Shown: piece after piece, positions 1 through 27,630 of the stretch | How positions within the stretch are numbered: position 1 is the first letter of the stretch | How the letters are laid out: the number at the start of each line of letters is the position of its first letter | The notes under the pieces: model-generated | Told to the model about the DNA's origin: nothing | Database searches by the model: none | What the model saw: only the letters and a program-made list of their open reading frames with translations | Assembly (NCBI GenBank): GCA_045631345.1 | Contig: JAZQUP010000004.1 | Span: 15,727-79,726 of the forward strand | DNA from: Candidatus Avispirillum sp. | GTDB lineage: Bacteria; Bacillota; Clostridia; Oscillospirales; CAG-272 | DNA length: 64,000 nucleotides | Direction of reading: 5' to 3' | Translations under genes and position numbers: made by a program

Positions 1-7
1 AATCAAA

Positions 8-2074
8 GTGCTGAACAAATTGATACAGAAAAGGCGTCAGGTAGCTGCGAGCAGTGATGAACGCCTGAGGGGTGTAAAAAGGAATATATATACCCGCTCC
101 ATAGGCTTGGTAGTATTCATTGTTGTGGTAACAGTAACTCTTTTGTTTGCTGTAACAACAGCATGGTATACCAATACTATTGCAGTTAACGGACTCACAT
201 TCAAGGCAGAAGCTTGGGGATTTGATGGTTCGGTATCTGTTAGTGAAGAGGCTATAGAAGCAGCACCAGGAGATTCAGGCCTTATTGAGCTTCATATAAA
301 GAATAAAAGTGATCTGGCAAGCTCAATTGGCTTAAGTATTTCCAAACAATATATGGAAGAAGCGCAGATGCAAAAGCGCATATACTTCTATGTAGATAAA
401 ACCGCTGTTGTAAACGGTGAAACTATTGACAAAGTATATCTTAACAATTCAAAGGGTTATTCTTATACACTGTATGGCCATAATGAATTGATTCTTTCAG
501 AAGAAATTTGCACAGATGTTCCGCTCAAATGGGAGTGGGTATATGATGTTGTAGGTTATTATTTTGTTGGAACAATAGATCAGATTGATCAGGAGTCTGC
601 TATTGTAGTTGAAGAATATCTTCGTCCCGTAGAGTATTCATTTGATGATGCAACCTATGATGAAGATGGAAATCTTCTTACAGTTGATGGTGAAAAAACT
701 ATAGTTGAGTATTTGTCAGAGATAACAGCAGCTGACGGATATGAGGGTGCATATACAGTAGCTGATGATAAGCTTATGTATGGCGAAGAAGAGGTTGCTA
801 TTGAAGTTCCTAATTGTTATCCTGTGGATATAGAAAACAATATTTGGATATATTTCTGCACAAAAGTAGAAATTGAGGCCAATACTGTATGGGATACTCT
901 TTATGGAACAACTGCAGAAACAGATAAAAGAAGCTATCAGGCTAGAATTTCTGTAACAGGCGAGCAGCTTAACCAGCAGGTTGTAACTTTGGAGGCTAAT
1001 TCTGATCTTACAGAAGCTCTGAATTCAAATAGCGGAAACATTGTTCGTCTTTCCAATAACATTACTGCAACCAGCTCTATTAAAGTAGGCGTTGCAGCAA
1101 CAGAAGATGAAGAAGGCGTATATGTAAATGCGTTGGTAGACCTTAATGGTTGTGAAATAAATGTAACAGATGCAAAGCTTACGTCAATATTTGAAGTAGC
1201 GGAAGGATCAAGCCTCACTTTGTTTAATGGTGTCATCACAGGAGATACAGGAACAAAGGCGTCAGGTGTCAAAGCGGTTGGTAGTGCTGTAACTATGAAC
1301 AACATCAGTATGAGCGGCTTGAATACGGGTGTTTATATTGAAGATAACGCTTCAAATGGTGCAAACTCAACCGTAATTATTACTGACTGCGATTTGGAAG
1401 CTTCAGTTGGCGCTGTAAGAATTATTGGTGATGGTTATGATACAGCTGCCATGACGCAGCTTATTGTTCAGGATAGTAGACTTGTAAGTACCACATTCAG
1501 TGCTATTTACGGTAACGGAACAATAGGCAAAAACGGAAGCAATGGCACAACTATTCAGGTTATAAATAGTACTCTTGAAGGATATTATGCATCTATATAT
1601 CATCCTCAGATGGATAGTGTGCTTTCCATTGAGTCCAGTACATTAAAGGGTATGACAGGCCTTGCTGTTAAGGGTGGCGATATCAGAATTTCTAACAGTA
1701 AGGTTATCGGAACAGCAACAGATGATAGCCCTATAGTTGTTCCTACAGAAGATAAGTTAAGTATGAGTGGCTTTAGTGATACAGGTGATGGTATCTATAT
1801 TGAAAGTAACTATGGATATCCTGTTAAACTTACAATAACAGGCGACTGTGAAATCAGCCATAATGCAAGAACTGCAAGAGCTATCAGAGTATTCCCCGAG
1901 GCCGAGCATGTCAAGGTATATATAGATGGAGGAGTATTCACATCAGATGTTTCTGACTTCCTCACAGAAGAATATCAGTGTGTAGAAGAAGAAAAGCAAG
2001 TTGAAGGTAGCGAAGAAACTATCACGGTTTATAAAGTCTCATTGAAGGAAGAAACCAATAACGAAGAAAATTAA
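8..2074 (+). CDS. SipW-class signal peptide protein with TasA/camelysin-like N-domain and C-terminal right-handed beta-helix
   Basis: Basic n-region, hydrophobic stretch, then 'VTTAWYT'; 'AAPGDSGLIELHIKN' resembles the TasA-family PGD..N motif; domain ends 'ISVTGEQ'; C-half has beta-helix-like repeats (VDLNG.., ITDCDLE, INSTLEG). GTG start at the window edge is uncertain. Confidence 0.65.
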   Translation: MLNKLIQKRRQVAASSDERLRGVKRNIYTRSIGLVVFIVVVTVTLLFAVTTAWYTNTIAVNGLTFKAEAWGFDGSVSVSEEAIEAAPGDSGLIELHIKNKSDLASSIGLSISKQYMEEAQMQKRIYFYVDKTAVVNGETIDKVYLNNSKGYSYTLYGHNELILSEEICTDVPLKWEWVYDVVGYYFVGTIDQIDQESAIVVEEYLRPVEYSFDDATYDEDGNLLTVDGEKTIVEYLSEITAADGYEGAYTVADDKLMYGEEEVAIEVPNCYPVDIENNIWIYFCTKVEIEANTVWDTLYGTTAETDKRSYQARISVTGEQLNQQVVTLEANSDLTEALNSNSGNIVRLSNNITATSSIKVGVAATEDEEGVYVNALVDLNGCEINVTDAKLTSIFEVAEGSSLTLFNGVITGDTGTKASGVKAVGSAVTMNNISMSGLNTGVYIEDNASNGANSTVIITDCDLEASVGAVRIIGDGYDTAAMTQLIVQDSRLVSTTFSAIYGNGTIGKNGSNGTTIQVINSTLEGYYASIYHPQMDSVLSIESSTLKGMTGLAVKGGDIRISNSKVIGTATDDSPIVVPTEDKLSMSGFSDTGDGIYIESNYGYPVKLTITGDCEISHNARTARAIRVFPEAEHVKVYIDGGVFTSDVSDFLTEEYQCVEEEKQVEGSEETITVYKVSLKEETNNEEN

Positions 2075-2089
2075 GAAAGGGTGGCAAGT

Positions 2090-2704
2090 ATGAGCAGTAG
2101 AAAAAACGGCATATTGCTGAAAATATTGTTGTTACTGCTCATTGCTTGCACTGTGCTTGCTGTAGGGGTAACTTATGGTAGGTATCAAAGCTCTATAATA
2201 TCAGCTTCTTTTAATGTAACTGCAGTTTCTGCAGATTCATTCAGTATTTTCGGTGGTGCATTGGATCCTGAGAAAATGACAGAAGCGTGGCCGGAGCTTG
2301 ATGAAGGCTGGTCAATGAACGATTTAGGCGCAGAACTAAGATTTTTTGTTTCTAATGGTGATTCCGTAGAAAGCTATTCTCAGAGAAGCAGAAATTATAG
2401 TATTAAGATTGTTTCCGGCTCATTAGAGCAGCTTAATGTTAACTTGTCTTATATTGATGAAAATGGAAATCTTATGGAGCTGCCTGCCAATCCTGAAAAA
2501 ATCAATAAGGGAAGTCAGTTGTATGACTCATTTGGCGATGGCTGGGTTTATACCTTCCTTGATACAAATGAGGAGGAGGTTGAATTCGTCCTGGAGGGCG
2601 AAAAGTTCAGCTATAGAAACTTCACATTAAATGTGTGGGGAGAATCTGACCCGAGCCTTTTAAATGTTATTGTAACAGGAAATATTGTAACAGAAAATTC
2701 ATAA
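2090..2704 (+). CDS. small secreted protein with SipW-like signal (TYGRY), putative minor fibre subunit
   Basis: SD GAAAGGGGTG before ATG 2090; hydrophobic helix followed by 'GVTYGRYQS'; beta-rich acidic mature part. Confidence 0.55.
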   Translation: MSSRKNGILLKILLLLLIACTVLAVGVTYGRYQSSIISASFNVTAVSADSFSIFGGALDPEKMTEAWPELDEGWSMNDLGAELRFFVSNGDSVESYSQRSRNYSIKIVSGSLEQLNVNLSYIDENGNLMELPANPEKINKGSQLYDSFGDGWVYTFLDTNEEEVEFVLEGEKFSYRNFTLNVWGESDPSLLNVIVTGNIVTENS

Positions 2705-2728
2705 CCAATTTCAGAAAGGGGAGCGTGA

Positions 2729-4675
2729 ATGGGTAAGCGCAGAATTAAATATTTGCCGTTGGCGGCTGTGCTGATCTCAGTAGCAATGCTCACCGTTATT
2801 GTTTCTGGAATCGGTATAACTCAAGGAAGAATAAATAATGTTCTTGCTTGGAATTCAGTTTATTCAACCACATCAGGTGAGCTTGAAAGTAATCACCTTG
2901 AAAAAGGTGGCCAAACGGTTTTGCTTGAAAGCTGGAGTATAGAGCAGGGGATTCAATCAACAACAGAGACTATCAACCTGTCAAGCACAACTGGAACAGT
3001 TGAAGGAACACTTACCTGCATAACAAGCTCTGACCTGATAAGCGCAAGTATTGATAAAAATGCAGTTGTTGCCGATGAAGACGGCGAATCAGTAACTCTT
3101 GTAATTACAATGAAAGAGAATGCTCTTTCCATAAATAAAAAAACAGAGGTTTCTGTTCAGGTTGGTTGGATTCCGTCTGATTCTACAGATGGAAATATAA
3201 CTCACTATGCAGATTTCAAAATTGATATATACCCTCAGGATATGAACGCTGAGACCGGTGAAGAGGTAGCTGAGCTGATTTCAAGCAATTATCTTGCTGT
3301 TGGGGGCAAAAACATAGTTTTCAGCGATTGGTATACATCGGCCACTTCCACTTATAGAATGTGGGATCTTGAGCTTATATCCAATGACGGTGACCAGACA
3401 GGTACGTTATTTTGCGAAACAAATTCCAAATATCTGCAGGTTATGTTAGATAATTCGGAGATTGCTCAGAGTATAACAGTTGGCGAGGACAGCAAATATA
3501 TATCAGTGCTGAAAATAATTTTGTTGGAGGATGCAGGATTTCTTGCAGAGCCAATAAAAGAAACAGTGCGTGTTACCTGGATACCGGATTCAGTTGTTGA
3601 CGGCAATCAGGATATGTGGGCAGAGTTTGTTATCAATATAGTGCCTGCATATAGCGAAGAGCTTGATGATAGCGAAAATATGGACACATTGAATTTTGAA
3701 AATGTGCCATCACAATTTGTATGGGACAGTTTTTTTGAAATTCCTGTAGAATGTTCGCAAAAATCAGATATAATAGAGCTAAGCTACAATGGTGGAGAAT
3801 TTCCTGCCGGAACAGAGTATAGCAGCGATGGTATAACTCAATACGAGCTTGGTGATAAAAGCAAAATAAAAATCAAAGCAACTCCGGAAGAAACTGTTGA
3901 TGTTTTGATAAAGCTTAAAGAAAACTCAAAAATTGAAAATGTGGATATAGGTGTAACTGTCTATTCGTATAGCGAAGCAATTGCACGTGGCACTAAGAGC
4001 CTCACTCCATATTCCGAAAACGAAGAGAAAGAATTGCTTGAATCAGGAGCATATCCTTCCGAAATTTCTTCAAAAGAAGAATTTCTCCTGGAGGTTAATG
4101 TTCCTGAAAATGCCAATCTGATAAAGCTTGGCTATAATGGCGGAGCATTTCCATCATATGTGCGCTACAGAACAGATGACGGACAATATGTAAAGCTGGG
4201 TAGAAGTGAAAAAATAGAAATTTCTGCAAAATCAAGCATTGATATATATATAGATTTTTCTCAAACGCAAGAAAATCTCCCTGAAAGCGTTTCCATAAAA
4301 GTGGAGGCATATAAAGGGGATATTCAATTGACAGAAAAAGAAATTCAAATAAAAACAACATTGAACCCGCTTTCAGCGAAATACGACCTGTCGCAGATGA
4401 TCATTCACCACGACGGAGAAATTTCGTTTCAGTTAGCAGGAGAAAATGAAAAAACTATTTTGAAGGTTCAGAAGTTTTCCTCAGCAGACGGACAGATGGC
4501 CTATGTGGAAGATGAAAATAATTTTGGCCTGAACGTTAAAACGGAAAACGGAGTGCTCAGCATTTCGAACCTAGCAGGAAAGGCGAAAGCCGGAACCTAC
4601 CGAATTGTTTTATTGCGGGAACAAAACGGACACGAGCTTATCCGAATAGAAATCCCGTTTTTCATACACTATTAA
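2729..4675 (+). CDS. secreted multi-domain protein with internal duplications (A-A-B-B), SipW-like signal
   Basis: SD AAAGGGGAG; N-terminal hydrophobic helix then 'GITQGRIN'; two pairs of internal repeats visible in the translation. Confidence 0.55.
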   Translation: MGKRRIKYLPLAAVLISVAMLTVIVSGIGITQGRINNVLAWNSVYSTTSGELESNHLEKGGQTVLLESWSIEQGIQSTTETINLSSTTGTVEGTLTCITSSDLISASIDKNAVVADEDGESVTLVITMKENALSINKKTEVSVQVGWIPSDSTDGNITHYADFKIDIYPQDMNAETGEEVAELISSNYLAVGGKNIVFSDWYTSATSTYRMWDLELISNDGDQTGTLFCETNSKYLQVMLDNSEIAQSITVGEDSKYISVLKIILLEDAGFLAEPIKETVRVTWIPDSVVDGNQDMWAEFVINIVPAYSEELDDSENMDTLNFENVPSQFVWDSFFEIPVECSQKSDIIELSYNGGEFPAGTEYSSDGITQYELGDKSKIKIKATPEETVDVLIKLKENSKIENVDIGVTVYSYSEAIARGTKSLTPYSENEEKELLESGAYPSEISSKEEFLLEVNVPENANLIKLGYNGGAFPSYVRYRTDDGQYVKLGRSEKIEISAKSSIDIYIDFSQTQENLPESVSIKVEAYKGDIQLTEKEIQIKTTLNPLSAKYDLSQMIIHHDGEISFQLAGENEKTILKVQKFSSADGQMAYVEDENNFGLNVKTENGVLSISNLAGKAKAGTYRIVLLREQNGHELIRIEIPFFIHY

Positions 4676-4719
4676 AGAGTATTATTCCTTAAATCCGACA
4701 AAACAGGAGGCATACTTAT

Positions 4720-7700
4720 ATGACCGAAACACAAAAAAGGATAAAAGCATATCAAAAGGCTCTGCCATTCATGAAGGAACGAGTTATGGCAGTTGCACTG
4801 CTGTTTGTTATGTCAATCTCTATGATGGCATCAGCAACATTTGCATGGGTAACATTGTCTCGTAGTCCTCAGATAAGTGGACTTTCAACAACAGTTGCAA
4901 CAAATGGTAACTTGGAGATTGCCCTTTCTGATGAGGACGGAAACGAACCTGATCCTACATCTGTTACAGACGGCAGCGGAGATATTACAGAGAGTAACTT
5001 AAAATGGGGAAATCTTATAAACCTGTCTCATGGTAGCTATGGTTTGTCCAGCCTTACTCTTCGCCCCGCTTCACTTAACCAGGGATCACTTCTTACAGAG
5101 CCTCTTTACTCTGTTGAATATGCATATGACGGACGTATATCTAATGTTATTTACGATTTTGCATATACAAACTATGAATCCAGAGATGGAGCAAATGCAT
5201 TCTTTGTTCCTGACCAGGTTAAATATGGTGTGCGTGCTATTTCTTCTGTAACATACGATAGTGTTACAGGTAATGCAACACTTCAGACTCTTAACAATAA
5301 TGTAAAGCAGAAGTATGCTGAGGCATATAGCACTTTTGAAGCTCTTTGGAGTAATTCAAGTTATATGAACAGTATTACAGGCTTGGCTGGTGTATATCTG
5401 AGTTGGCGAAGTAGTGATGACGGTAATGGAGGAAATGTTGACCAGGATTGTAGCAGCTATGTAGAAATTATAAATGATATGTACAGCGAGTTCAGAAATA
5501 GTATTTTGGTTACAGGTGAGGTATTTGTTGCCAGTGCAAATGTATATAATTTCATTAATAATCAGCAGAATTTTATACCTTTTACCTCTGATGATCTGTA
5601 CGACGGTACAATTAAAACAACGCTTGCTGCCCAAGGTGTTACACTTGATGGGCTTGATTCTTTTATCAAGGACCATAATTTGTTTATTGGTACAAAGGCT
5701 AATAACTACGAAGATGGCCTTTATGAAAAATACAAGAAGAATGTATATGAACCCTATAAACAGAACCAATCTATCGGTTGGGTGTTGATGAGCAGCTATA
5801 TCAATCCTGTAGCTGATGTCAATACAGCAACAATTGATGGAAAAGCCGCCAATGTTCTTGGAGCTGGTGATCTTGTTTCAATCGCATTTGGTAAACCTGT
5901 TTGTGAGCTTCAAAAGGGTATTCTCTGGAATATGGACTGGTACTTTGGTGGTGAAATTTCTGTTGCCAATGTTAAAGCCGTGGCAATGGGCTTTACTGTT
6001 AATATCAAAGAAATCAGAACAAGCGTTAAGGGAAAGGTTGAAGATCCTTCCAATAAAACGTATACAAACTATCCTATAATAGAAACTAAGAATAAAGCAA
6101 TTGCAAGAGCAAATCAGGGCGGTCTTACAGCAACTGATGCTATTGCTGCGGATACCTACGGAATGGTTGTAGACTTCTGGCTTCGCACTAATGCAGCGGA
6201 TGCACTCCTTTCTCTTGCAGGTAAGGTTAATACAGCGCAGGAACAGCTTTATGATACAGAGGGAAATCCTGTTTATGATGATAACGGAAATCCTGTTTTT
6301 GAAACTGTTGTTCTTGGATATTCAGGAGAGAACAGAATCTGGGAAGAGGACGATGAGCTTTCCGCACTTGGTCCCAGCACATCACAGGGCTCAGGTAGCT
6401 GCTATATCTTCTATCCTGAAACTCCTGAGGATCAGGCGCAGGCTCTTGAAATGCTTGCGGCAATGAGAGTTGCCTTTATTGATGAAGAAGGAAATCTCCT
6501 TGCTCAGGCTGATATGGATACAACAATGGCATTTGAGCAGGAGGGCCGAGTTCTTGTTCCTCTGCAGCTTCGTGCTAAGTCTATTATCACAGGCACAGAC
6601 GAAGAGGGAAATCCCATTACAGAAAATGCATATTACATCACAAAGCTTGTTCAGAATGAGGCAACAAGAATAACAGCTATTGTTTATCTTGATGGTTCTC
6701 GTCTTGAAAACAGTAACGTTCTTGCGGCAGGATCTATCAAGGGTCAGCTTAATATCCAGTTTGATTCAAGCGAAGATCTGGATGCTAAAGATGACCAGGA
6801 TTTGATGGATGAATTCTATGATATTTCTATTGAGGCGATTGGCGAAACAGAATTTGATAAATTTGATCCTGATAACAAGCCTCAGGTAAAGCTTAGTCTT
6901 GCTGTTGTAGGTATGAATCCTGATAATATCAAGGGTCAGTTCGTTTCATATATTTCTGAAACACAGGGTGCCAGCCAGCCTGAGTTTGATTTTGAGAAAA
7001 CAGATAATGGCTGGGAGGCAACAGTAACCTTTGAAGGATCCGGTAGCTTTAAGCTTAGAAATATCCGAATTGACGGTGTTGACTACGCTCTAAAGGAAGA
7101 CCAGATAATCACAGTTGAAATTGCCGGTGTAACAGTAAACAGTATCTTCTGCGAAGGCTGGGATAATAAAAACACTAAAACTGTTATGACAGCAGATTCC
7201 TATTATCAGCTTAATTCATCTATAGGATTGAATATAAGTGCCGGTCAGAATCCCAAAAAGGTTCAGGCAGTGTTTGCTCATAATGAAGGACAGAGTATTA
7301 CCGTTGACTATAATAAAACTGAAAATGGTTGGACGGCAAGCGCTATGTTCACCACTAGTGGTACCTATGAATTGACATATGTTATCATAGATGGTGTTTA
7401 TACTCCTCTTCCTGAAGAATTGCATAAAAAGATCACATTGTATCTTGGTCTTAAGGCGCAGGTATTCCTCAGCCAGCCTATGACTGAAGAATATCAGAGT
7501 AAGCTTGCCGAAATTGAGGATGCTGAGGCGGCAGAGATTGCAGCATACAGAGCTGCAAATGCAGGCGCAACATCAGAAGAGCTTTCTGCAGGTATTGCAG
7601 CAATTCAGAAAAAATATAATCTTCAGAAGGATAGTCTCTATGATGAAGCATATGGCGAGGATGGACTTAAAATGACAACCTCCGCTTCAGGCTATTCACT

Positions 7701-9414
7701 TATATATGATGGATCAGAATCTCTGTATATGAATGTCAGCTGTATCATCAGAGATGATAAGGGTAACGCAATAACCGGTCTAAAGGATGTTGTTCTCTAC
7801 TATAGTGGCGGTTCAATGAACGTAATCGATACAAACCTTACATGGAATAGTAGTAGCGGCAGATATGAGGGTCCTGATGCAAGTGAAACTGAGAGCACAG
7901 GTCGATTTAAAATCAGCCTTCCCAGTATCTATTCCTTCCAAAGTGTTGTAATAGGTAAGGGTGAAGAAAAGAATACCATCTCTGTTGCAACAGACGCTCC
8001 TACAATAAGAGCCCTTTCACCTACACCTATTTCTTATATAGGTAAAGCGACTGAATCTTATGTTGGTGAAGAAGATAAGTATTTGTATAAGGAATCTGTA
8101 GTAGATATCAGCACTTCTGCAAATAGATATATGAGCGTATTGCTTAAGGATGCTATTTCTGCAGAAGTACAGCTTAAGATTCAGAATATTGATGAGGGTG
8201 CTCAAGGAGAAGTATCAGATTGGTTAGATGCAGAAAAGATTGATCTTGGTACAGAAAGCAGATATTTGTATAATGTAAAGGCTCCTACAGATGGTGTATG
8301 GAAAATAGTTGGTATTCGAATCAAGAGTGTATATTATAACGATGTACTGTATGATGGCGAAGAGGGCTCAACAGGTTGGCTTGATTGGACTGATAAGGTT
8401 GTGGCAAGTAATATTGTAACAAAGTTCTTCACAACAATTAATGTGTCAGCAACTGAAAACCCCAGTAACATCACATACACTACAGGATTTATGGAAGGTA
8501 AGAAGTTTGATGATATTTCTCTTATCATAACCGACTATCTTGGCAGACCTGTTGAAGGAATCAAGGTTGGTCTCAAATATGAATGGCAAGGTTATAGAAC
8601 AGCAGGTATCACAGATAATAGTTCCGTTCTTCCTGCTAGCTATAAAGTATTTGGTTCAGATGATGTTGCCTCAAGTGATGGTAAAACATTCAGTATTGGA
8701 GCAGTTCATTTCCAGCTTGACGGCACATATAAGTGTACATTCAAGATAATCTACGACGGAGTAGAATATAGCAATCTTGCCAAGGGCGGTTTTGATGCTA
8801 ATAATGTAACTATTGAGTGGGAACAGTTGGATGTAATAACAATTTCAGCAATTACCCCCAATGGTAAGAACTTTGCGATAGATGATATTGCTAGTGGTAC
8901 TACTACTGATAGTAGTAGAACAGAAGGCTGTGATACAATTTACACTACTGCCGCAGCTCACAAGAACGCAAATAGCCATAATTATACTGCAGAAATCACT
9001 AATAATGGAAAAACTGCATCTGTCTATATTGTTTGTGAAGATTATTCTTCTGCTGGAGATGATCATGAGTGTGCGCCCGCTGAGGTTACATTGACCATGA
9101 CCGCAATAGAAAATGTTACAGCGGCAACATTAAATTTTGTAAAACAAGGTGGCGGTACAGTACATTTGTACACTTCCTACTCAACTAGTCTTACAAACTG
9201 GGATGCAGATACAGAAGGACAAACCTCATCTTATACATGGTCAAGCGGTTCAGGTACTTGTATGCGTTATGTAGGTAAGGTAGGCGGATCATCTTCAAAT
9301 TCTGATAGTAAAACTGCAGCAGGAATTCTCGAGTCTCAGTCTATTACTCTCACATACAACGGAATTCAGTTTACACTTCCTTATACAGGAATAACAATCA
9401 AAAACGAAAGATAA
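4720..9414 (+). CDS. large (1564 aa) SipW-class secreted adhesin-like protein
   Basis: SD CAGGAGG; 'SATFAWVTLS...ATNGNLEIAL' fits the SipW-cognate signal/donor-strand pattern; repeated Ig-like modules; Cys-containing C-terminal domain; no LPxTG or C-terminal TM. Confidence 0.65.
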   Translation: MTETQKRIKAYQKALPFMKERVMAVALLFVMSISMMASATFAWVTLSRSPQISGLSTTVATNGNLEIALSDEDGNEPDPTSVTDGSGDITESNLKWGNLINLSHGSYGLSSLTLRPASLNQGSLLTEPLYSVEYAYDGRISNVIYDFAYTNYESRDGANAFFVPDQVKYGVRAISSVTYDSVTGNATLQTLNNNVKQKYAEAYSTFEALWSNSSYMNSITGLAGVYLSWRSSDDGNGGNVDQDCSSYVEIINDMYSEFRNSILVTGEVFVASANVYNFINNQQNFIPFTSDDLYDGTIKTTLAAQGVTLDGLDSFIKDHNLFIGTKANNYEDGLYEKYKKNVYEPYKQNQSIGWVLMSSYINPVADVNTATIDGKAANVLGAGDLVSIAFGKPVCELQKGILWNMDWYFGGEISVANVKAVAMGFTVNIKEIRTSVKGKVEDPSNKTYTNYPIIETKNKAIARANQGGLTATDAIAADTYGMVVDFWLRTNAADALLSLAGKVNTAQEQLYDTEGNPVYDDNGNPVFETVVLGYSGENRIWEEDDELSALGPSTSQGSGSCYIFYPETPEDQAQALEMLAAMRVAFIDEEGNLLAQADMDTTMAFEQEGRVLVPLQLRAKSIITGTDEEGNPITENAYYITKLVQNEATRITAIVYLDGSRLENSNVLAAGSIKGQLNIQFDSSEDLDAKDDQDLMDEFYDISIEAIGETEFDKFDPDNKPQVKLSLAVVGMNPDNIKGQFVSYISETQGASQPEFDFEKTDNGWEATVTFEGSGSFKLRNIRIDGVDYALKEDQIITVEIAGVTVNSIFCEGWDNKNTKTVMTADSYYQLNSSIGLNISAGQNPKKVQAVFAHNEGQSITVDYNKTENGWTASAMFTTSGTYELTYVIIDGVYTPLPEELHKKITLYLGLKAQVFLSQPMTEEYQSKLAEIEDAEAAEIAAYRAANAGATSEELSAGIAAIQKKYNLQKDSLYDEAYGEDGLKMTTSASGYSLIYDGSESLYMNVSCIIRDDKGNAITGLKDVVLYYSGGSMNVIDTNLTWNSSSGRYEGPDASETESTGRFKISLPSIYSFQSVVIGKGEEKNTISVATDAPTIRALSPTPISYIGKATESYVGEEDKYLYKESVVDISTSANRYMSVLLKDAISAEVQLKIQNIDEGAQGEVSDWLDAEKIDLGTESRYLYNVKAPTDGVWKIVGIRIKSVYYNDVLYDGEEGSTGWLDWTDKVVASNIVTKFFTTINVSATENPSNITYTTGFMEGKKFDDISLIITDYLGRPVEGIKVGLKYEWQGYRTAGITDNSSVLPASYKVFGSDDVASSDGKTFSIGAVHFQLDGTYKCTFKIIYDGVEYSNLAKGGFDANNVTIEWEQLDVITISAITPNGKNFAIDDIASGTTTDSSRTEGCDTIYTTAAAHKNANSHNYTAEITNNGKTASVYIVCEDYSSAGDDHECAPAEVTLTMTAIENVTAATLNFVKQGGGTVHLYTSYSTSLTNWDADTEGQTSSYTWSSGSGTCMRYVGKVGGSSSNSDSKTAAGILESQSITLTYNGIQFTLPYTGITIKNER

Positions 9415-9425
9415 CACAAACGAGC

Positions 9426-9455
9426 ATGAGCCAATTCCATATTGGGTTGGCTCAT
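9426..9455 (+). other. intergenic stem-loop (possible attenuating/stabilising hairpin)
   Basis: ATGAGCCAA...TTGGCTCAT inverted repeat with a T-run shortly after. Confidence 0.5.
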
Positions 9456-9503
9456 ACGAAGTTATTTTTTGGCAATAAACTTAGATATATTAGGAGGACG
9501 CAT

Positions 9504-11291
9504 ATGCGCCAAAATATTTTAAAACTGAATATGGGGCGGGTAATTGCCGTCCTCCTTGCATTTGTTTTTCTTGTTTCAGTAGTGCCGAGGAGTAGTGCAG
9601 CAGAAACAAGTGGTGAGTGCGGAGAAGGCGTTTCATGGACCTTCACCAACGGTATTCTCACCATCAGCGGCGATGGCACAATGAAAAATTATTCAGAGAA
9701 TTCTACTGCTCCTTGGTCTGAATATAAAGAAATTATCACTGTTGTAAATATTGAAGATGGTGTTGCTAATATTGGTAGCTTTGCTTTTCTTAATTATGAA
9801 AAGCTTATGTGCGTTAATATTGCAGGCTCTGTTAAAACAATTGGCCAATATGCCTTTTATGGTTGCACTCAATTGAAAATGATCAATATTTCTTCAGGTG
9901 TTGAAGTAATCGGTGCCAGAGCTTTTAAGCTTTGTGAAAGCTTGACCAATATACGCCTGCCAGAAACCATCACAACCATTCGCCAAGAAGCGTTTTATAG
10001 ATGCGAAAGCCTTTTAGGAATTACAATTCCTGCTTCTGTAACAACTCTTGAGGCTTCTGCTTTTGCTTATTGTTCCTCTCTTAAAAACGCTATAATTCTT
10101 GCAAATGTTGCAGAACTTCCTTCTTGGGTATTTTATGGCTGTTATGCGCTGGCTGAGGTGTCAATTTCAGCTTCTGTAAGCAATATTGGCGTTCAGGCAT
10201 TTCAGGATTGCTATGATCTTACGGTAGTAAACTATGCCGGAGAGGGCGATGTTGCAGATAGTGTCAGAGAAGATCTTCCTTACACTGTAACAAACTTCAA
10301 TTCAAATGCTAATATTTCTGCAGATAGTGAATTTTCTTCAGTTAAATCTGAAACTGACGAAAATGGTAATACAGTAACTACAAACAAAACCTACAAGGAA
10401 ACAGAAAACAGCTCTGTTTCAACTGATGTTATTCACACAATGGGCAGCGGCGAATATAAGGCTGAGCTTAAGCTGGATGCAACGGTTGAAAATGAAGATG
10501 GCTGGAACGATGTTAAGGAGCAATTGGCAAGTGCTATGGCTAGCCGTGAATACGGGACCAAAAAGGAAACGATGGATATAAATATTCATCTTAAGGGCAA
10601 TGCCGTTATTTCCAGCAAAAGCCTTAATATGTTCACAAATAAAAATGCTTTTGTTTCTATTTACACAAGTCAGGGAGCGAAATGGAGATTTAACGGAACT
10701 GATCTTCGTGAAAAGGATCTCATAGGTAATTATGATCTTTCATATACTTTTGAGCTCTTGACCGATCCGGATAAAAATCAGGAAGCGGTTGTTGGCACAA
10801 AAGGATATTTGCTCAGATTTAATTCCGATCTTAATTTCAAGGTAGAGATTCATCTGCCTGTTGGGATTGAAAATGCTAGGTTAATATCCTCATTTTATTC
10901 ACCTGAATTTAAAAAAGGTTACACACTTTTGCAAACATCCGTTATTGATAACGAGGGTATAGCACATTTCTATCTTGCAAGTGTAAAAGCTAAATCTGAT
11001 TATCTTGTTGGTATTGGATACCATGCCGATCTTGATTTGGATGGTCTTGACGAAGCAATCGTTCCTTCTGAATTGGAAGGTGACTATCCTAAAGCAGACT
11101 ACAGAGAGCCTATACAGTATGTAGTATCTGATGTTAAATCCTCTTGGGGTCTTGATATCAATCAGGTAACATGGATTCTTGTAGGAGTTATGGGTGGATG
11201 TATCCTTGTTGTAGGCGTTGTGGTTTATATTATATTCAAGATGAAGAGAAGAAACTATTACGACCCCTATCTTGACGGAAAGAAAAAATAA
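9504..11291 (+). CDS. BspA-type leucine-rich repeat surface protein with C-terminal membrane anchor
   Basis: SD AGGAGG before ATG 9504; signal peptide; 'SGECGEGVSWT..GILTISG' cap and IGxxAFxxCxxL repeats; C-terminal TM plus basic tail. Confidence 0.85.
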   Translation: MRQNILKLNMGRVIAVLLAFVFLVSVVPRSSAAETSGECGEGVSWTFTNGILTISGDGTMKNYSENSTAPWSEYKEIITVVNIEDGVANIGSFAFLNYEKLMCVNIAGSVKTIGQYAFYGCTQLKMINISSGVEVIGARAFKLCESLTNIRLPETITTIRQEAFYRCESLLGITIPASVTTLEASAFAYCSSLKNAIILANVAELPSWVFYGCYALAEVSISASVSNIGVQAFQDCYDLTVVNYAGEGDVADSVREDLPYTVTNFNSNANISADSEFSSVKSETDENGNTVTTNKTYKETENSSVSTDVIHTMGSGEYKAELKLDATVENEDGWNDVKEQLASAMASREYGTKKETMDINIHLKGNAVISSKSLNMFTNKNAFVSIYTSQGAKWRFNGTDLREKDLIGNYDLSYTFELLTDPDKNQEAVVGTKGYLLRFNSDLNFKVEIHLPVGIENARLISSFYSPEFKKGYTLLQTSVIDNEGIAHFYLASVKAKSDYLVGIGYHADLDLDGLDEAIVPSELEGDYPKADYREPIQYVVSDVKSSWGLDINQVTWILVGVMGGCILVVGVVVYIIFKMKRRNYYDPYLDGKKK

Positions 11292-11298
11292 TGATCTG

Positions 11299-11331
11299 AA
11301 TCCGCAGAGACTTGTTTCTCTGCGGATTTTG
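11299..11331 (+). terminator. Rho-independent terminator
   Basis: AATCCGCAGAGA-loop-TCTCTGCGGATTTT. Confidence 0.75.
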
Positions 11332-11378
11332 TGTTAGAATAAGTAAAAGCATTGAAAATTTTAAAAGGGAGACTATAT

Positions 11379-12473
11379 ATGATGAATCCTACAGAAAACA
11401 GAATATATTCAAATGCTCCCGATCCGGTACAGCTTTTAAACAGAGATGCAATTCAGATCAATTCAGCTGAAATAGATCAGTATGTAATGGATAAGGTGGT
11501 TCTTATCACAGGTGGTGGAGGATCTATCGGGAGTGAGCTTTGCCGTCAGATTGCAGCGAGAAAGCCTAAGAAACTTATCATATTTGAGATCAGCGAATAC
11601 AATGCTTATATTATAGATTATGAGTTAAGAGAAAAATTTCCTCAGCTTCAGTTGGAGGTTCTTATTGGCTCAGTGAGAGACAAAAACAGGGTGAATAGTA
11701 TATTTGAAAAATATAAGCCTCAGGTTGTTTATCATGCCGCAGCGCATAAGCATGTGCCTCTGATGGAGAACTCTCCTTGTGAATCTATAAAAAATAATGT
11801 TTTTGGAACGTTGAATGTGGCTGAAGCTGCCCATAATAATGATGTTGATAGATTTATTCTTATCAGCACAGATAAGGCTGTCAATCCCACAAGTATAATG
11901 GGAGCCTCAAAACGTATTTGTGAAATGATTGTTTGCAATTTGTCATATCGCTCAAAAACAAAATTTGCTTGTGTACGCTTTGGAAACGTTATGTGTAGCA
12001 GTGGAAGCGTTGTTCCGTTGTTTGAAAAGCAGATTTTAGCAGGAGGACCTGTCACTGTAACAGATAGAAATGTTATAAGATATTTCATGACCATTCCTGA
12101 GGCTGTTTCTCTTGTTTTGCAGGCAGGGGTATATGCAGACAAGGGTGAGATCTTCGTGCTTGATATGGGCGAAGCAGTACGTATAGACGACCTGGCAAGA
12201 AGTCTTATCAGACTTTATGGTTTTGAGCCTGATAAGGATATTAAAATTGTTTATACAGGTCTCCGTCCCGGAGAAAAGCTTTTTGAGGAGCTGCTTCTTA
12301 CAGAGGAGGGTCTTGAGCAAACTCCAAATGAACTGATTTATTGTGGTAAACCTGAAAAAATAGATAGTGTTGCTTTTGTTAATCAGCTGAGCAGGCTCAG
12401 AGAGGCATGTGAAAGCAATAGTGATAACATTAGGGAGTTTGTTAAAGATATCGTTATCGCATATTCCACATGA
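11379..12473 (+). CDS. CapD/PglF-like UDP-sugar 4,6-dehydratase (catalytic domain only)
   Basis: TGGGGSIGSEL, HAAAHKHVP, ISTDKAVNPTSIMGASKR, RFGNV and GLRPGEKL motifs; no N-terminal TM region. Confidence 0.88.
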   Translation: MMNPTENRIYSNAPDPVQLLNRDAIQINSAEIDQYVMDKVVLITGGGGSIGSELCRQIAARKPKKLIIFEISEYNAYIIDYELREKFPQLQLEVLIGSVRDKNRVNSIFEKYKPQVVYHAAAHKHVPLMENSPCESIKNNVFGTLNVAEAAHNNDVDRFILISTDKAVNPTSIMGASKRICEMIVCNLSYRSKTKFACVRFGNVMCSSGSVVPLFEKQILAGGPVTVTDRNVIRYFMTIPEAVSLVLQAGVYADKGEIFVLDMGEAVRIDDLARSLIRLYGFEPDKDIKIVYTGLRPGEKLFEELLLTEEGLEQTPNELIYCGKPEKIDSVAFVNQLSRLREACESNSDNIREFVKDIVIAYST

Positions 12474-12477
12474 AAAT

Positions 12478-12506
12478 TTGACAAATTTTAATAAAGGTGA
12501 TATAAT
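12478..12506 (+). promoter_or_regulatory. sigma-A promoter of atp operon
   Basis: TTGACA-17 nt-TATAAT with extended -10 TG. Confidence 0.85.
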
Positions 12507-12588
12507 ACTGTTTGTATGTAATCTAAGAAAGGAGCTGGCTGTCTGATAAGGGGAGTTGGTTCCTTTTGCGCTTTTTTGGAGAACATTG

Positions 12589-12969
12589 ATGAGAAAAATA
12601 GATGAAACTGTTTTAAAGGAAACTAAATATATAGCATTCTGGGTGCTTGTTTTCAGCGTATTGATGCAAGCTGTATTTTTGATTATTGGAGAATGGAACT
12701 ATACAGTTCTTTTGGGTAATTTGCTTAGCGCATTTTTTACTGTTATAAATTTCTTATTGATGGGTATAACTGTTCAAAAGGCTGTGATGAAGGAAGAGAA
12801 GGATGCAAAAACTTTGATGAAGGTTTCTCAGCTTTATCGAAGCCTTATGATTCTTGTGGTAACTGTAATCGGAGTTGCTTTGCCTTATTTCCACACAGTT
12901 GCAGTTATAGTTCCGGTATTTTTTGTAAGAGTAGCGGTGGCTATCCGTCCGCTTTTTGATAAAAAGTGA
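12589..12969 (+). CDS. atpI: ATP synthase protein I
   Basis: Four-TM small protein first in the atp operon. Confidence 0.75.
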   Translation: MRKIDETVLKETKYIAFWVLVFSVLMQAVFLIIGEWNYTVLLGNLLSAFFTVINFLLMGITVQKAVMKEEKDAKTLMKVSQLYRSLMILVVTVIGVALPYFHTVAVIVPVFFVRVAVAIRPLFDKK

Positions 12970-13003
12970 TTAATCTCCCGTAAGTATGTGAGGTGATATT
13001 AGA

Positions 13004-14196
<1,193 letters not shown>

Positions 14197-14214
14197 TAAT
14201 TTAGGAGAAATACT

Positions 14215-14721
14215 ATGCAAACATTAGACGTCATTTCTGTCAACATATGGCAGATTTTGATTGCTCTCATAAACCTTGTTTTGATGTTTCTCATTATAAA
14301 ACGCTTTTTGTTCAAGCCTGTAAAACAGATACTTGCAAAGCGCCAAAGCGAAATTGATGGTCAGTATGAAGCTGCCCGTATTGCTGAGATCGAAGCGAAT
14401 GAAAGCAAAGCTCGTTGGAATGAAAGACTGTCAGGCGCAGATGCAGAAGCGGATGCTATAATTCAGAAAGCAACAGATAACGCTAAGTATCGCGGAGAAA
14501 AGCTGGTTGCAGAAGCAGAGGAAAAGGCCGAAAGCATTATTCGCATAGCGAAGACAGAGGCTGAGCTTGAGCGTAAAAAAGCAGTTGAAGGTATTAAGCG
14601 AGAAATCGTTGAGGTTTCAGGAGCGCTTACAGAAAAGATGCTTGAGCGTGAAATAAATAACGAGGACCACAGAGCATTGATTGATTCATTTATTGAGAAA
14701 ATAGGTGAAGCAGATGAATGA
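14215..14721 (+). CDS. atpF: Fo subunit b
   Basis: N-terminal TM, KP..L.KR motif, coiled coil; operon position. Confidence 0.93.
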   Translation: MQTLDVISVNIWQILIALINLVLMFLIIKRFLFKPVKQILAKRQSEIDGQYEAARIAEIEANESKARWNERLSGADAEADAIIQKATDNAKYRGEKLVAEAEEKAESIIRIAKTEAELERKKAVEGIKREIVEVSGALTEKMLEREINNEDHRALIDSFIEKIGEADE

Positions 14722-15244
14722 TATTGGTAAGGAATACGGAGCGGCGCTTTTTATGCTTGCTTCGGAGGAGAATGCTAAGGATGAATATGCGGATGCTCTT
14801 GAGAGTCTCAAAAAGAGCTTTGAAGACTCTCCTGATTATGTCAGCTTTCTAGCATCTCCGGGAATATCATTGGGTGAAAGATTGGCAGCAATAGAAGCTG
14901 CTTTTGCGGAATACATTCCCACAAATGTTCTTTCCTTTGTTCAGCTTATGTGTGAAAAGGGAAGAATAGAAAACTTTTTTGAAGCGGCAGAGGAATTTAA
15001 AGCCTTGCTTGATGCTTCAAAGCATATATCAAACGCAAAGATAACAAGCGCTGTTGAGCTTACAGATGATGAAAAATCTAAGCTTTATGAAAAACTTAAA
15101 GCCATGAGTGGCGGAGAGATTCAGGCTGAATATTTTGTTGATAGTTCATTGATGGGAGGACTCATCGTTGAGCTGGATGATAAAATTATGGATGGAAGCT
15201 TGAGAAATCGTTTGCGTGAGGTAAAGGATGTGATAAATTCATGA
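14714..15244 (+). CDS. atpH: F1 subunit delta
   Basis: YGAALF; SAVEL; D.SLMGG...DGSL; ATG 14714 overlaps the end of atpF. Confidence 0.93.
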
Positions 15245-16734
15245 ATACAAGACCTGAAGAAATCAGTAATGTTATAAAAGAGCAGATTAAGAATTACAGA
15301 TCCAAGATCGAAATGAAGGAGACGGGAACTGTTATTCTTGTTGGTGACGGAATTGCTCGTGTATATGGTCTTCGTGAGTGTATGGCAAGCGAGCTTCTTG
15401 AATTTGAAGATGGAAGCTTTGGCATGGCTCAGAACCTTGAAACAGAAACTGTTTCTGTAGCGCTTCTTTCAGATAACAATAATATAAGAGAAGGCTCTTC
15501 TGTAAAACGAACAGGTAAAGTTTTGTCTGTTCCTGTAGGTGAGGCTCTTCTTGGCAGAGTTGTAAATGCTCTTGGCGAGGCGATAGACGGTAAAGGTCCT
15601 GTTGTAACAAACGAAACAAGACCTATTGAATCTGAAGCTCCCGGTATTATTGAGAGAAAGAGCGTTTCAGTTCCCCTGCAAACAGGAATCAAGGCTGTGG
15701 ATAGTATGATTCCGATTGGCAGAGGTCAGAGAGAGCTTATCATTGGCGACAGACAGACAGGTAAAACAGAAATTGCAATTGATACAATTATCAATCAGAA
15801 AAATTCTGACGTTATCTGTATTTATGTAGCGATCGGACAGAAAAACAGCTCCGTTGTTCAGCTGGCAAATGAGCTTACAAAAGCAGGCGCAATGGAATAT
15901 ACAATTATCGTTTCTGCATCTGCATCAGAGTCTGCGCCTCTTCAGTATGTTGCGCCTTATTCAGGATGCGCAATGGCTGAATATTTTCGTGAGCAAGGAA
16001 AGGACGTGCTCATCATTTATGATGACCTTTCAAAGCACGCCGTTGCATATAGAGCGCTTTCATTGCTTATTCGTCGTCCTCCAGGACGTGAGGCATATCC
16101 CGGAGATGTATTTTATCTCCATTCCCGTCTTCTTGAAAGAGCAGCTTGTGTTGCGCCCGAATACGGCGGTGGGTCAATAACAGCACTTCCTATTATCGAA
16201 ACACAAGCGGGTGACGTTTCAGCATATATTCCCACTAATGTTATTTCTATTACAGACGGACAGATATTCCTTGAAACAGAGCTTTTCCACGCAGGCGTAA
16301 TGCCGGCTATTAACCCCGGTATTTCTGTAAGCCGAGTAGGTGGTTCAGCTCAGCTTAAAGCTATGAAAAAGGTTTCAGGCGAGCTCAAATTGCTTTATTC
16401 GCAGTATAGAGAGCTTCAGTCCTTTGCTCAGTTCGGAAGCGATCTTGACGCTGATACAAAGGCGAGACTTGCTCTTGGTGAGAGAATAGTTGAGGTGCTC
16501 AAGCAGGGAAGAAATGCACCTGTAAGAGTTGGTTGCCAGGTTGCAATAGTATATGCGGTTATCAATGGCTATCTCAACGAAACTCCCGTTAAGAAGGTTA
16601 AGGAATACGAAAGAGACTTATATGAGCTTCTTGAAAATAAGTATCTCAGTTTTCTTGAAAGAGTTGAAGGCGGTTCTTGGGATGAAAACGATATAGAAGA
16701 GCTTAAAACAGCACTTTCTGAAATGAAGAGGTGA
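15241..16734 (+). CDS. atpA: F1 subunit alpha
   Basis: [31 protein letters not shown]. Confidence 0.98.
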
Positions 16735-19228: not shown

Positions 19229-19261
19229 AAAAGCAGACACTTTAAAAGTGTCTGCTTTTTT
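19229..19261. terminator. bidirectional terminator between atp and pilus operons
   Basis: AAAAGCAGACACTT-TAA-AAGTGTCTGCTTTTT between convergent genes. Confidence 0.85.
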
Positions 19262-19832
19262 ATAGCTTACAGTATATGATAGTATATTTGCTGGGGTAGG
19301 AATCTTTAATAAATAAAACAAAATCAAAGTCTTCAGTAGAAGTGAATTCGGCAGGCAGATCGTTTTCAACTGAAATATTGCTTACTGAATAGGTGAATTT
19401 TGCACCTGTCATATCTATGAAGCAAATCTCTTCTCCTATATTAATAAGTTTAGAGAAGTTTAGATGTTTGTCCGTTCCACCTATAACGAAATTTTCTGAA
19501 TAAATGCTTCCGCTATAACGGCAAGGCTGATGCTTGAAGTTATCTTTATTCCATGTATGAGACACAGGACAAACTGTATTGTATTGAGGTATCTCAATAA
19601 TTCCTACGTAATCGGTGCCGTTGATCTCAACGGTTGCCATAGATGTGTCAATTCTGTCGTCTATAAATCCCATATAAGTTTCGGGGATAAGAGAATAAAG
19701 GGTTTCAGTAGTTTGCGGCATCTTTTTAGTAGAATCAGTTTGGTTGATATAAAGCAATGCAACCAAAGCAAGAGAAAAAACGATCAGCGCAATTCCGCAA
19801 TATAGGATTATGTTAGATAAGATCCTTTTCAT
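19260..19832 (-). CDS. sortase-fold protein lacking catalytic residues (pseudo-sortase)
   Basis: N-terminal TM; 'GIIEIP...PV...P.RYSGS....FVIGG...GEEICF.D..G..FTYSV' sortase pattern, but no His, TC or Arg at the expected positions. Confidence 0.7.
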   Translation of the reverse strand: MKRILSNIILYCGIALIVFSLALVALLYINQTDSTKKMPQTTETLYSLIPETYMGFIDDRIDTSMATVEINGTDYVGIIEIPQYNTVCPVSHTWNKDNFKHQPCRYSGSIYSENFVIGGTDKHLNFSKLINIGEEICFIDMTGAKFTYSVSNISVENDLPAEFTSTEDFDFVLFIKDSYPSKYTIIYCKL

Positions 19833-20758
19833 TGCTCGCTCCTTTTAAGAAGAAGAGCTATTATCATAAGCAAAATTCCCGAAACGCTCATAGCAATAAT
19901 ATAAGGCTCGGTGGTGCTTATATCTCCTGTCTGAGGCGGGTTTTCAGGCGCATCAAAGCAGGTATTTGTAACGATTATAGAAGTATTATTATATTCAACA
20001 GAAACAACATAATCGCTTGAAATATTGCGTTCTACAGCCTGCCATTTGCTGCCGTCATCTTCGCATTTCCATGTATAGCACCAGTTGTTGCTTGCGTCAA
20101 GAATTACAGAGGTGTGAACAGCTCCATCCTTTAAAAGATCAATTTCCACGCTGTCAGGTCTGTCTGCAGAGTTGCCTTCGTCCTTCCATTGCTTGACTAT
20201 TTTATAGGCAAACTCTTTTTTTGTTGGGGTATAAGCGGAATGTTTCGGGCGAGCAAAAACATCATATAGATGTTCGTTTTTCTCGCTCGGAGAGGGAACA
20301 GCTGTGAGAAAGTTTTCAAATGTGATAACAGTTTCTCCTGAAACAACCTTTCTCTCCAATATGAGATACATTCCTGCTTCTATATTTTCAAATTTTGCGC
20401 ATCCGTTTGTATCTGTGATTGCTTTATATGTGGGTTCAATTGAATCTGCAGCAATATAAGAGGCAAGCGTTGAGGCAACCTTTTTCCATTCAGACTGAGC
20501 TGTAATCCCATAGATGTTTACAAAGTAGTTGCTAAACTCCTTTGTAAGCTCATATGTGCCGTCTTCAAAAACATCTGCAATTTTATATGTGTATATTTCC
20601 AATCCATCAAAAAGCGTTTCCGAATAGCCATATTCAACAGTTAAAGAACAAGGCTTGTCTGTGTCAATAGGATTGATAGCATATGATGAAATCGATGATG
20701 TAATCGTAGAGAGTAAAACTAAGCAAACAGAAATGACAGATATTATTTTTTTCATCAA
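19829..20758 (-). CDS. minor/basal pilin with Cna-B domain
   Basis: Signal peptide; 'KQWKD...RPDSVEIDLLKDG...NNW' CnaB; sorting signal PPQTGD + TM + basic tail. Confidence 0.85.
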   Translation of the reverse strand: MMKKIISVISVCLVLLSTITSSISSYAINPIDTDKPCSLTVEYGYSETLFDGLEIYTYKIADVFEDGTYELTKEFSNYFVNIYGITAQSEWKKVASTLASYIAADSIEPTYKAITDTNGCAKFENIEAGMYLILERKVVSGETVITFENFLTAVPSPSEKNEHLYDVFARPKHSAYTPTKKEFAYKIVKQWKDEGNSADRPDSVEIDLLKDGAVHTSVILDASNNWCYTWKCEDDGSKWQAVERNISSDYVVSVEYNNTSIIVTNTCFDAPENPPQTGDISTTEPYIIAMSVSGILLMIIALLLKRSEQ

Positions 20759-21591: not shown

Positions 21592-21619
21592 ATTCCTCTC
21601 CCTGATGTTATAGTTTTGT

Positions 21620-21647
21620 ATGGGGTGCGGAATTATCCGCACCCCAT
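21620..21647 (-). other. stem-loop after major pilin gene
   Basis: ATGGGGTGCGGA-ATTA-TCCGCACCCCAT. Confidence 0.7.
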
Positions 21648-21670
21648 ATTAAATTCAGAAAATGTTTTGC

Positions 21671-23137: not shown

Positions 23138-23206
23138 GATTTTTTTCCTTTCTTTAGAAAAATAATTTTTTTGTTTGTTTTATTTTGGATGATATCTCGG
23201 CCTAAA

Positions 23207-27589: not shown

Positions 27590-27630
27590 AGCAACCCCCC
27601 TCCTTTCTGAGAATTTTGCTTAGGGGGAAT

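Follow-up and report, generated by a model that had tools for sequence, protein, structure and literature searches.

A candidate SipW-processed, sortase-free fibre cluster with a McrBC-like NTPase in Candidatus Avispirillum sp.

What surface structure do the five genes at the start of this contig region build? The region analyzed (the window) is a 64,000-nt stretch of contig JAZQUP010000004.1 (C4) of Candidatus Avispirillum sp., and its positions 8 to 11291 carry open reading frames ORF1 to ORF5, which a preliminary description took for a sortase-independent fibre-adhesin operon of the SipW/TasA type. By following the genes upstream of the window, into related genomes and into predicted structures, we found that ORF1-5 are the 3' third, or downstream arm, of a 16-gene cluster of about 27 kb whose order recurs in Clostridia genomes. 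The cluster probably encodes a SipW-processed, sortase-free pilus assembled by donor-strand exchange, with ORF1 to ORF4 as minor, passenger-bearing subunits, and is likely to be a TasA-like SipW fibre within CoCoPALM, a system type that has been named but is uncharacterised.

ORF calling gave five plus-strand frames separated by 6, 24, 44 and 11 nt, as expected of the tight co-oriented array first described. ORF1 (688 aa, 8..2074), ORF2 (207 aa, 2081..2704), ORF3 (648 aa, 2729..4675) and ORF4 (1564 aa, 4720..9414) each begin with a single N-terminal hydrophobic helix, followed by TTAWYT (aa 50), TYGRYQ (31), TQGRIN (31) and TFAWVT (40), respectively. Both core motifs that had been pointed out are present and conserved: in PGD..I.N of ORF1 the P and G are invariant and the N nearly invariant in 25 orthologue domains, and the N, G, L and E of NGNLE in ORF4 are invariant across 58 family members. 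No SLH or other family exceeded its cut-off in ORF1-4 (Pfam, NCBIfam), and none of the complete orthologues tested has a C-terminal transmembrane (TM) segment. The claim that these proteins lack SLH domains and C-terminal TM segments therefore stood, but the literal absence of LPxTG and lipobox sequences did not, as ORF4 contains LPYTG and ORF2 contains LIAC, neither of them functional. The LPYTG (aa 1553, twelve residues from the end) was rejected as a sorting signal since no TM segment follows and it is missing from the ends of 7 orthologues. The lipobox-like LIAC (aa 20-23) lies within the hydrophobic helix, and a lipoprotein was rejected because the Cys, a 35-60% consensus residue, is not conserved. 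Sortase has no part in the cluster, as had been proposed: no LPxTG with TM segment and basic tail was found, there is no sortase at the locus, and the sortases of this genome lie in other loci.

The 15.7 kb preceding the window contain eleven further co-oriented cluster genes (locus L001, C4 1-17800; window position = C4 minus 15726, the window starting at C4 base 15727). Those nearest the fibre question encode a 388-aa protein with an internal TM segment at aa 113-140 (C4 4355-5521), a 754-aa protein (5619-7883), a 332-aa protein (8110-9108), the peptidase SipW1 (9121-10050), a 533-aa AAA+ protein with a TM segment at aa 52-89 (10142-11743), a McrC-like 596-aa protein (11770-13560), a 453-aa protein (13599-14960) and SipW2 (14941-15783). 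The 754-, 332- and 453-aa proteins have SipW-type signals. The SipW gene expected upstream was thus found twice: SipW2, whose last 57 nt are window 1..57 (+), overlaps the GTG start of ORF1 by 50 nt, and SipW1 lies 6 kb upstream. Both passed the TIGR02228 model (86 bits against a cut-off of 51.85), though not the Bacillus SipW model (85-88 against 190).

Conservation of the cluster was determined by scanning with the 596-aa protein, which gave 32 loci from 131 candidate stretches; flanks ended at 10 kb or at contig ends, so that distal genes are undercounted. The records, among them relatives at 86-88% identity, are titled Clostridia, Oscillospiraceae, Lachnospiraceae, Acutalibacteraceae and Eubacteriales, and many come from gut samples, ruminant or otherwise. 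A sole record titled Bacteroidaceae carries the cluster (L026), the others being clostridial, possibly through mis-binning or transfer. Among the 32 loci the McrB-like gene was present in 31, SipW in 30, small pilins in 30, the 754-type in 26, ORF1 in 26, ORF4 in 24, ORF2 in 23, the 388-type in 21, ORF3 in 19 (7 copies by direct search, the others by position), the HD-EAL gene in 17 and ORF5 in 6. Three loci, L016-L018, duplicated others and were excluded from the family alignments. Among 301 genomes sampled evenly from the order, the NTPase occurred in 30 and the ORF1 domain in 6, always 4.1-4.3 kb from the McrB-like gene; two of the genomes (G000 and G028) had fed the profiles, and others may have. 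Of 17 further genomes drawn from these 30 carriers, 16 had SipW upstream of the NTPase gene, one or two genes away; small pilins lay nearby in 14, the 388-type in 12 and ORF1 in none. Because most of these 17 loci keep SipW, pilins and the 388-type but none has ORF1, the cluster divides into a core of anchor-like protein, pilin, SipW, McrB and McrC and a subtype-specific arm, ORF1-5. At one locus (L068, G198:C37) two McrB-like genes flank a DUF2357-like gene, with no SipW detected nearby.

Sequence comparisons place ORF4 and the 754-, 332-, 453- and 388-aa proteins in one subunit family. The first 700 residues of ORF4 are homologous to the 754-aa protein (blastp E 4e-25 and 9e-13); profile alignment with hhalign joined the ORF4/754 core to the 332-aa protein (94.1%), and the latter to the 453-aa (99.9%) and, over the last strands, the 388-aa protein (91.5%). 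The 332-aa profile matched 1336 representatives at 50% identity (E up to 0.001), a large and unnamed family, and no Pfam domain lay on the best 120 of its database matches listed. The 388-, 332- and 453-aa proteins end in a conserved WLEG.D.DC, which might bind metal or form a disulfide; at this place the 754/ORF4 type reads YLDG and lacks Cys. The preliminary description had also expected a short major subunit upstream. One likely lies there, but it is not short: the 754-aa protein is the likely major subunit because its gene has a high codon bias (97th percentile, against 47, 24, 7 and 61 for ORF1-4; the reference was six genes chosen by motif), is followed by a strong hairpin and is present in one to three tandem copies in relatives. 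The 388-aa protein has no cleavage motif after its TM segment in any of 23 aligned copies, and its basic N-terminus is strongly conserved.

ORF4 itself consists of a pilin-family module (aa 43-700) and a variable passenger of about 860 aa, which carries a repeat (730-794/841-900) and a few Cys close to its end. Complete orthologues of 1533-2325 aa diverge past about residue 950. On contig C1 (L021), two stand-alone paralogues of the ORF4/754 family (4108-7944 and 8615-13762, minus strand; 1278 and 1715 aa) have intact signals and differing passengers, one with DUF285/LRR (leucine-rich repeat) repeats; they are possibly alternative adhesins supplied in trans.

Predicted structures agree with a free N-terminal strand in both proteins modelled. 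In the AlphaFold2 model of mature ORF1 (mean confidence, pLDDT, 86.4; 27-row alignment) residues 1-18 are unstructured and precede a beta-rich domain and a beta-helix; in that of ORF4 43-700 (pLDDT 83.3, pTM 0.59; 58 rows) residues 1-19 are unstructured and the beta domain is interrupted by a predicted helical bundle (aa ~181-470, window 5260..6129, +). A natural family member of 385 aa without this insertion exists (L027). The best beta match of the ORF4 core was the TasA fibre 8aur (Z 5.4, rmsd 3.8, 145/233 aligned, model 12-644; Z from re-alignment of the Foldseek top 1000 chains), and the S. acidocaldarius 0406 filament (Z 4.5) and AbpA (Z 4.3) also matched. The output of a wide fold search with the ORF4 model was taken up by matches of its helical insertion to generic bundles (best Z 8.8). 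For both the ORF1 N-domain (0.91) and the 332-aa protein (0.82), the nearest named Atlas cluster is that of TasA/camelysin, PF12389; these are language-model look-alikes, both leads only, and in the ORF1 case PF12389 lies on 14-36% of cluster members.

The beta-helix passenger described earlier was borne out by the ORF1 model. It adopts a predicted beta-sandwich (aa 53-321) and a right-handed beta-helix (aa 322-680; window 971..2047, +), the latter matching Vag8 best (Z 26.8, rmsd 2.8, 276 aligned), followed by the adhesin PfbA (Z 25.4, rmsd 3.1, 300 aligned) and many glycan-binding or glycan-cleaving beta-helices. A PDB sequence search added the L. reuteri SRRP (E 0.0014). The modelled helix is likely to be glycan-binding.

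Several results weigh against the TasA-like pilus. A disordered N-terminus in a model is also expected of any linker. The ORF4 match to TasA is middling, as a carbohydrate-binding module ties with it (Z 5.2) and ten helical matches rank higher; Foldseek placed AbpA fifth and the TasA fibre twelfth, both with weak E values (5e-3 and 1.7e-2). The ORF1 N-domain gave no fold match of its own in whole-model searches, both of which were dominated by the beta-helix. Outside the signal region, profile comparison did not connect ORF1, ORF2 or ORF3 with the 754/332 family (hhalign <=57%). No member tested exceeded the cut-off of PF12389 or NF046066, and the best camelysin-type score, reached by 1 of 32 N-termini against NF046066, was E 0.022, no better than spurious matches in the same search. 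TIGR04088, the profile for SipW-cognate signals, was over cut-off in 0 of 32 N-termini and nowhere in a genome search, and reached 17.3 bits (cut-off 19) in 1 of 51 distant relatives; the profile searches suggested in the preliminary description were thus negative throughout. When the pilin alignments were searched against PDB sequences, no informative match to the cores emerged. The gene counts rely on profiles derived from the very loci that were counted, and related loci are not independent of one another. ORF1-3 are absent from their usual place in L057, ORF4 directly follows McrC in L024, L027, L029 and L031, and ORF1-3 may not be core to the fibre. The TasA-like fold expected for the N-domains is weakly supported, for ORF4 by its fold match and for ORF1 by look-alikes only. 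We consider it likely that the cluster subunits work like TasA without being formal members of its family.

The closest known fibre systems resemble the cluster in part. TasA belongs to a SipW system with donor-strand exchange (PMC9674648), and B. subtilis tapA-sipW-tasA (8aur; PMC9674648) shares with the present cluster a dedicated SipW, a free N-terminal strand after the signal (predicted here) and perhaps, by a weak match, a jelly-roll-like core. The present cluster differs by its 16 genes (against three), its large insertions and passengers, its second peptidase, its NTPase and an uncleaved family member, and it gives no PF12389 match. The C. perfringens sipW-bsaA-bsaB-bsaC operon (PMC11580942) likewise comes from a clostridium and combines a SipW gene with genes for TasA-like subunits and a large accessory protein; for this system, base addition onto signal-anchored subunits has been modelled. 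BsaA is locked by an N-E-K isopeptide bond, whereas no Lys is invariant or nearly so in the 754/ORF4 and 332 families, and the available account of the bsa system mentions no McrBC pair (PMC11580942). In ORF1, mature residues N4 (donor strand, invariant), K61 (nearly invariant) and E86 (invariant; window 164-421) possibly form a BsaA-like triad. The archaeal AbpA/AbpB pili (7ueg; PMC9245690) feature a divergent TasA homologue that only sensitive searches recover; their operon has several genes, one of them for a multi-domain accessory subunit that has been proposed to act as starter and adhesin. As described there, they have no dedicated peptidase, and a predicted GTPase gene is not conserved across species. 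Sortase-free TasA/CalY heteropolymers are also known (PMC13082335).

The known SipW systems make released matrix fibres, as far as described (PMC9674648, PMC11580942, PMC13082335), and the cell anchor proposed here is a prediction. The SipW-processed proteins could form a loose released matrix, like TasA/CalY or BsaA oligomers, or act as monomeric adhesins, with the 388-aa protein and the NTPase doing something else. We regard this as unlikely: the many single-copy subunits, fixed order and large variable passengers fit an ordered appendage, and an uncleaved family member is conserved in 21 of the 32 loci and in 12 of the 17 further loci.

The signals themselves bear on whether the helices are cleaved at all. 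Seven cluster proteins have signals ending in x-[AT]-W or x-[AG]-R, the predicted cut lying before the W or R, and every family checked has a conserved motif of small residues followed by an invariant W or a conserved R/H. In ORF1 the predicted cleavage motif TTAWYT (155..172, +; cut between A and W) reads A-W-[YFH] in 27 of 27 aligned orthologues, and in each of the three alignments checked hydrophobic residues alternate at conserved positions of the donor region behind the signals. A pattern composed after the motifs had been seen was run over the 411 genome proteins with a hydrophobic stretch at the N-terminus and matched 16; this cluster accounts for 7 of them, a second SipW locus for 3 and ORF4 paralogues for 2, the other 4 lying elsewhere. 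Recurrence of the motif in the cluster exceeds chance. In a rival reading, uncleaved helices hold a surface or export complex in the membrane; the McrBC-like NTPase would drive this complex and SipW would serve as its chaperone, in the manner of streptococcal SipA. In favour of it, the helices are hydrophobic over a long stretch, TIGR04088 found no signal over cut-off, and the supplement of Bell et al., in the part available, gives a SipA match for the CoCoPALM peptidase (PMC11090510). This alternative is improbable, however, as every aligned orthologue of the two peptidases retains Ser and His (33/33 and 32/32), small residues precede the invariant W or conserved R/H, and the sole member without a motif has a different, long basic N-terminus.

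The AAA+ and 596-aa proteins resemble a McrBC pair. In the PDB, McrB gave the only sequence matches of the AAA+ alignment at E up to 0.01 (best E 7e-4), and Walker A, Walker B and NNDD are conserved in 32 of 32 AAA+ proteins. Their NxD-then-D/E signature is NNDDS in 32 of 32, although the same letters align ungapped to the E. coli NxxD. The TM segment stands where McrB has its DNA-binding domain, and a coiled coil was judged from the sequence. DUF2357 was detected in 18 of 32 McrC-like members at E up to 0.1 (best 3.9e-10), the copy of the window's genome not being among them; the C-terminal part is a charged coil (62% E/K/R/Q), in which 30 of 31 members have no nuclease motif and 1 has a PD-(D/E)xK-like pattern. 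Family scans found no nuclease family over cut-off among the 16 genes. A McrBC-derived anti-phage or other conflict system with the exported proteins as decoys or sensors is very improbable: the NTPase and DUF2357 do derive from Type IV restriction systems and the NTPase is patchy (30/301 genomes), but family scans and a motif pattern gave no nuclease domain in the McrC-like protein and no nuclease family over cut-off in the cluster, and a TM segment replaces the DNA-binding domain of McrB.

By its sequence features the McrB-like/DUF2357 module matches CoCoPALM, a name that Bell et al. 2024 (PMC11090510) gave, in one paragraph deferring to a later paper, to McrB-like systems with TM and coiled-coil segments. 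That paragraph lists a McrB-like GTPase fused to a TM segment and coiled coil, a coiled-coil McrC/DUF2357 protein, adjacent signal peptidases and an NxD-type motif followed by D, all seen here; signal peptidase genes accompany 30 of the 32 loci and 16 of the 17 further loci. Its text describes no subunits, anchor or fold, though Figure 3-figure supplement 1 of that paper may draw some of the neighbouring genes. Beyond what the text covers, the present subtype has the 754/ORF4 family, the ORF1-3 cassette, the LRR protein and a dockerin/cohesin-like pair. Among the matches listed, only Bell et al. 2024 and its preprint, which contributes nothing further as far as available, use the name, and no description of a CoCoPALM fibre or its subunits was found in the open-access literature. 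The present analysis contributes candidate subunits, a candidate anchor and the gene order; CoCoPALM as a named system type was already known.

For the SipW-processed donor-strand pilus, the following assembly is proposed. SipW1 and SipW2 would cut the seven signals at x-A/T before W or x-A/G before R, each peptidase perhaps serving one of the two signal classes. Each cut would free a predicted strand of about 19 residues with alternating hydrophobic positions, which, by analogy with TasA and the BsaA model, would slot into and complete the following subunit's beta-sandwich, with that subunit still held by its signal, so that the fibre grows at its base. The 754-aa protein would form the shaft and ORF1 would display its beta-helix, likely glycan-binding. 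ORF4 would stand at or near the distal end and display its variable passenger of about 860 aa; it could sit in line instead, because its donor strand and core are the same as those of the major subunit. ORF2 and ORF3 may jointly be linker or starter subunits, as suggested by TapA and AbpB. The 388-aa member, having no cleavage motif, would take the last strand and anchor or end the fibre. More speculatively, the nuclease-less McrBC-like NTPase might work from the cytoplasm, powering or gating the feeding of subunits, extension or release through segments of SipW1 and of the 388-aa protein that are conserved and likely cytoplasmic; we hold this possible, at somewhat under even chance. The fuller picture of a nucleotide-powered pilus of Gram-positive gut bacteria, in which a McrBC motor has been co-opted for TasA-family assembly, extension or retraction together with two SipWs, an uncleavable base pilin and interchangeable giant adhesins (ORF4 and its paralogues on other contigs being examples), is offered tentatively.

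A comparable logic is found in the Type V pili of Bacteroidia, which have membrane-tethered precursors, protease-triggered strand exchange, large tip subunits and an uncleaved anchor subunit. Those precursors are lipoproteins with a C-terminal donor strand, processed by a gingipain-type protease at the outer membrane, and the resemblance is one of logic, with no homology claimed.

The remaining exported proteins of the arm are ORF2, ORF3 and ORF5. ORF2, a small exported subunit, and ORF3 have a common x-A/G-R-Y type motif and related N-termini (hhalign 91.7%), and ORF2 is fused with an ORF3-like part in one relative (L046). ORF3 has two internal duplications (aa 52-171/184-309 and 314-412/430-528) and a conserved C-terminal AGTYR..FF.Y domain. 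ORF5, called as 621 aa (9426..11291, +), more likely starts at ATG 9504 (9504..11291), which is preceded by AGGAGG, and then has an ordinary signal peptide, BspA leucine-rich repeats and a conserved stalk. It is the membrane-anchored BspA LRR protein that had been described (LRR_5 E 7e-56; TM segment at aa 578-608, 11157-11249, +) and may be a separately anchored LRR adhesin or helper. In one relative, a Lgt-family membrane protein (L031 10746-11459; E 2.5e-17) directly precedes ORF5; it is absent in this genome, and genes of similar size occupy the slot in L008, L012, L024, L027, L028 and L074.

At the cluster head lie a dockerin gene truncated by the contig start (end only, C4 306-1589; 2188 to >2700 aa in relatives), whose missing front was not found on another contig by tblastn, and a gene for a TM-anchored protein (1605-2855) with a weakly cohesin-like N-domain; cohesins were its top three PDB matches (best E 0.029), with no Pfam cohesin match. 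The two are possibly a cohesin-dockerin surface-display pair. An HD and degenerate EAL protein follows (2885-4351). The start of the cluster in this genome lies off the contig. At the Rfam gathering level only tRNAs were found in 8 stretches, two of which span DNA upstream of the first cluster gene in relatives (L054, L056), and when the upstream part was scanned for promoter and terminator consensus sequences, promoter-like sites came out near shuffle level and were uninformative. At the other end, a 13-bp hairpin with T-rich bases (11298..11329, +; z -5.3) is a likely terminator and cluster end. A short CapD/PglF-like dehydratase of 373 aa, catalytic domain only (window 11352-12473), lies between this terminator and an ATP synthase operon; a link of the cluster to these capD-like and ATP synthase genes was rejected, as the terminator intervenes and the neighbours vary in relatives.

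The genome holds at least three fibre-type loci, since a classical sortase pilus locus in the window (19260-28215, minus strand) adds to the others; it comprises an S26 peptidase-family gene, a 1439-aa Cna-B protein, a backbone pilin, a sortase and a Cna-B protein. A second SipW locus on contig C19 (116088-127969) encodes two SipW, three proteins with FAKY/YARY signals, an LPxTG-like TM protein, a 1441-aa protein and a sortase, presumably class B-like by its motifs, so that SipW and sortase occur together there.

TasA-type fibres in the cited literature come from small operons with no conserved motor. If the proposed reading is true, the present cluster would give an organised, sortase-free pilus of animal-gut Clostridia, in which seven subunits are predicted to be cleaved, one protein is a candidate anchor and an NTPase is conserved. 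The CoCoPALM label would then gain a parts list with testable roles, including the possible reuse of a restriction motor in surface assembly.

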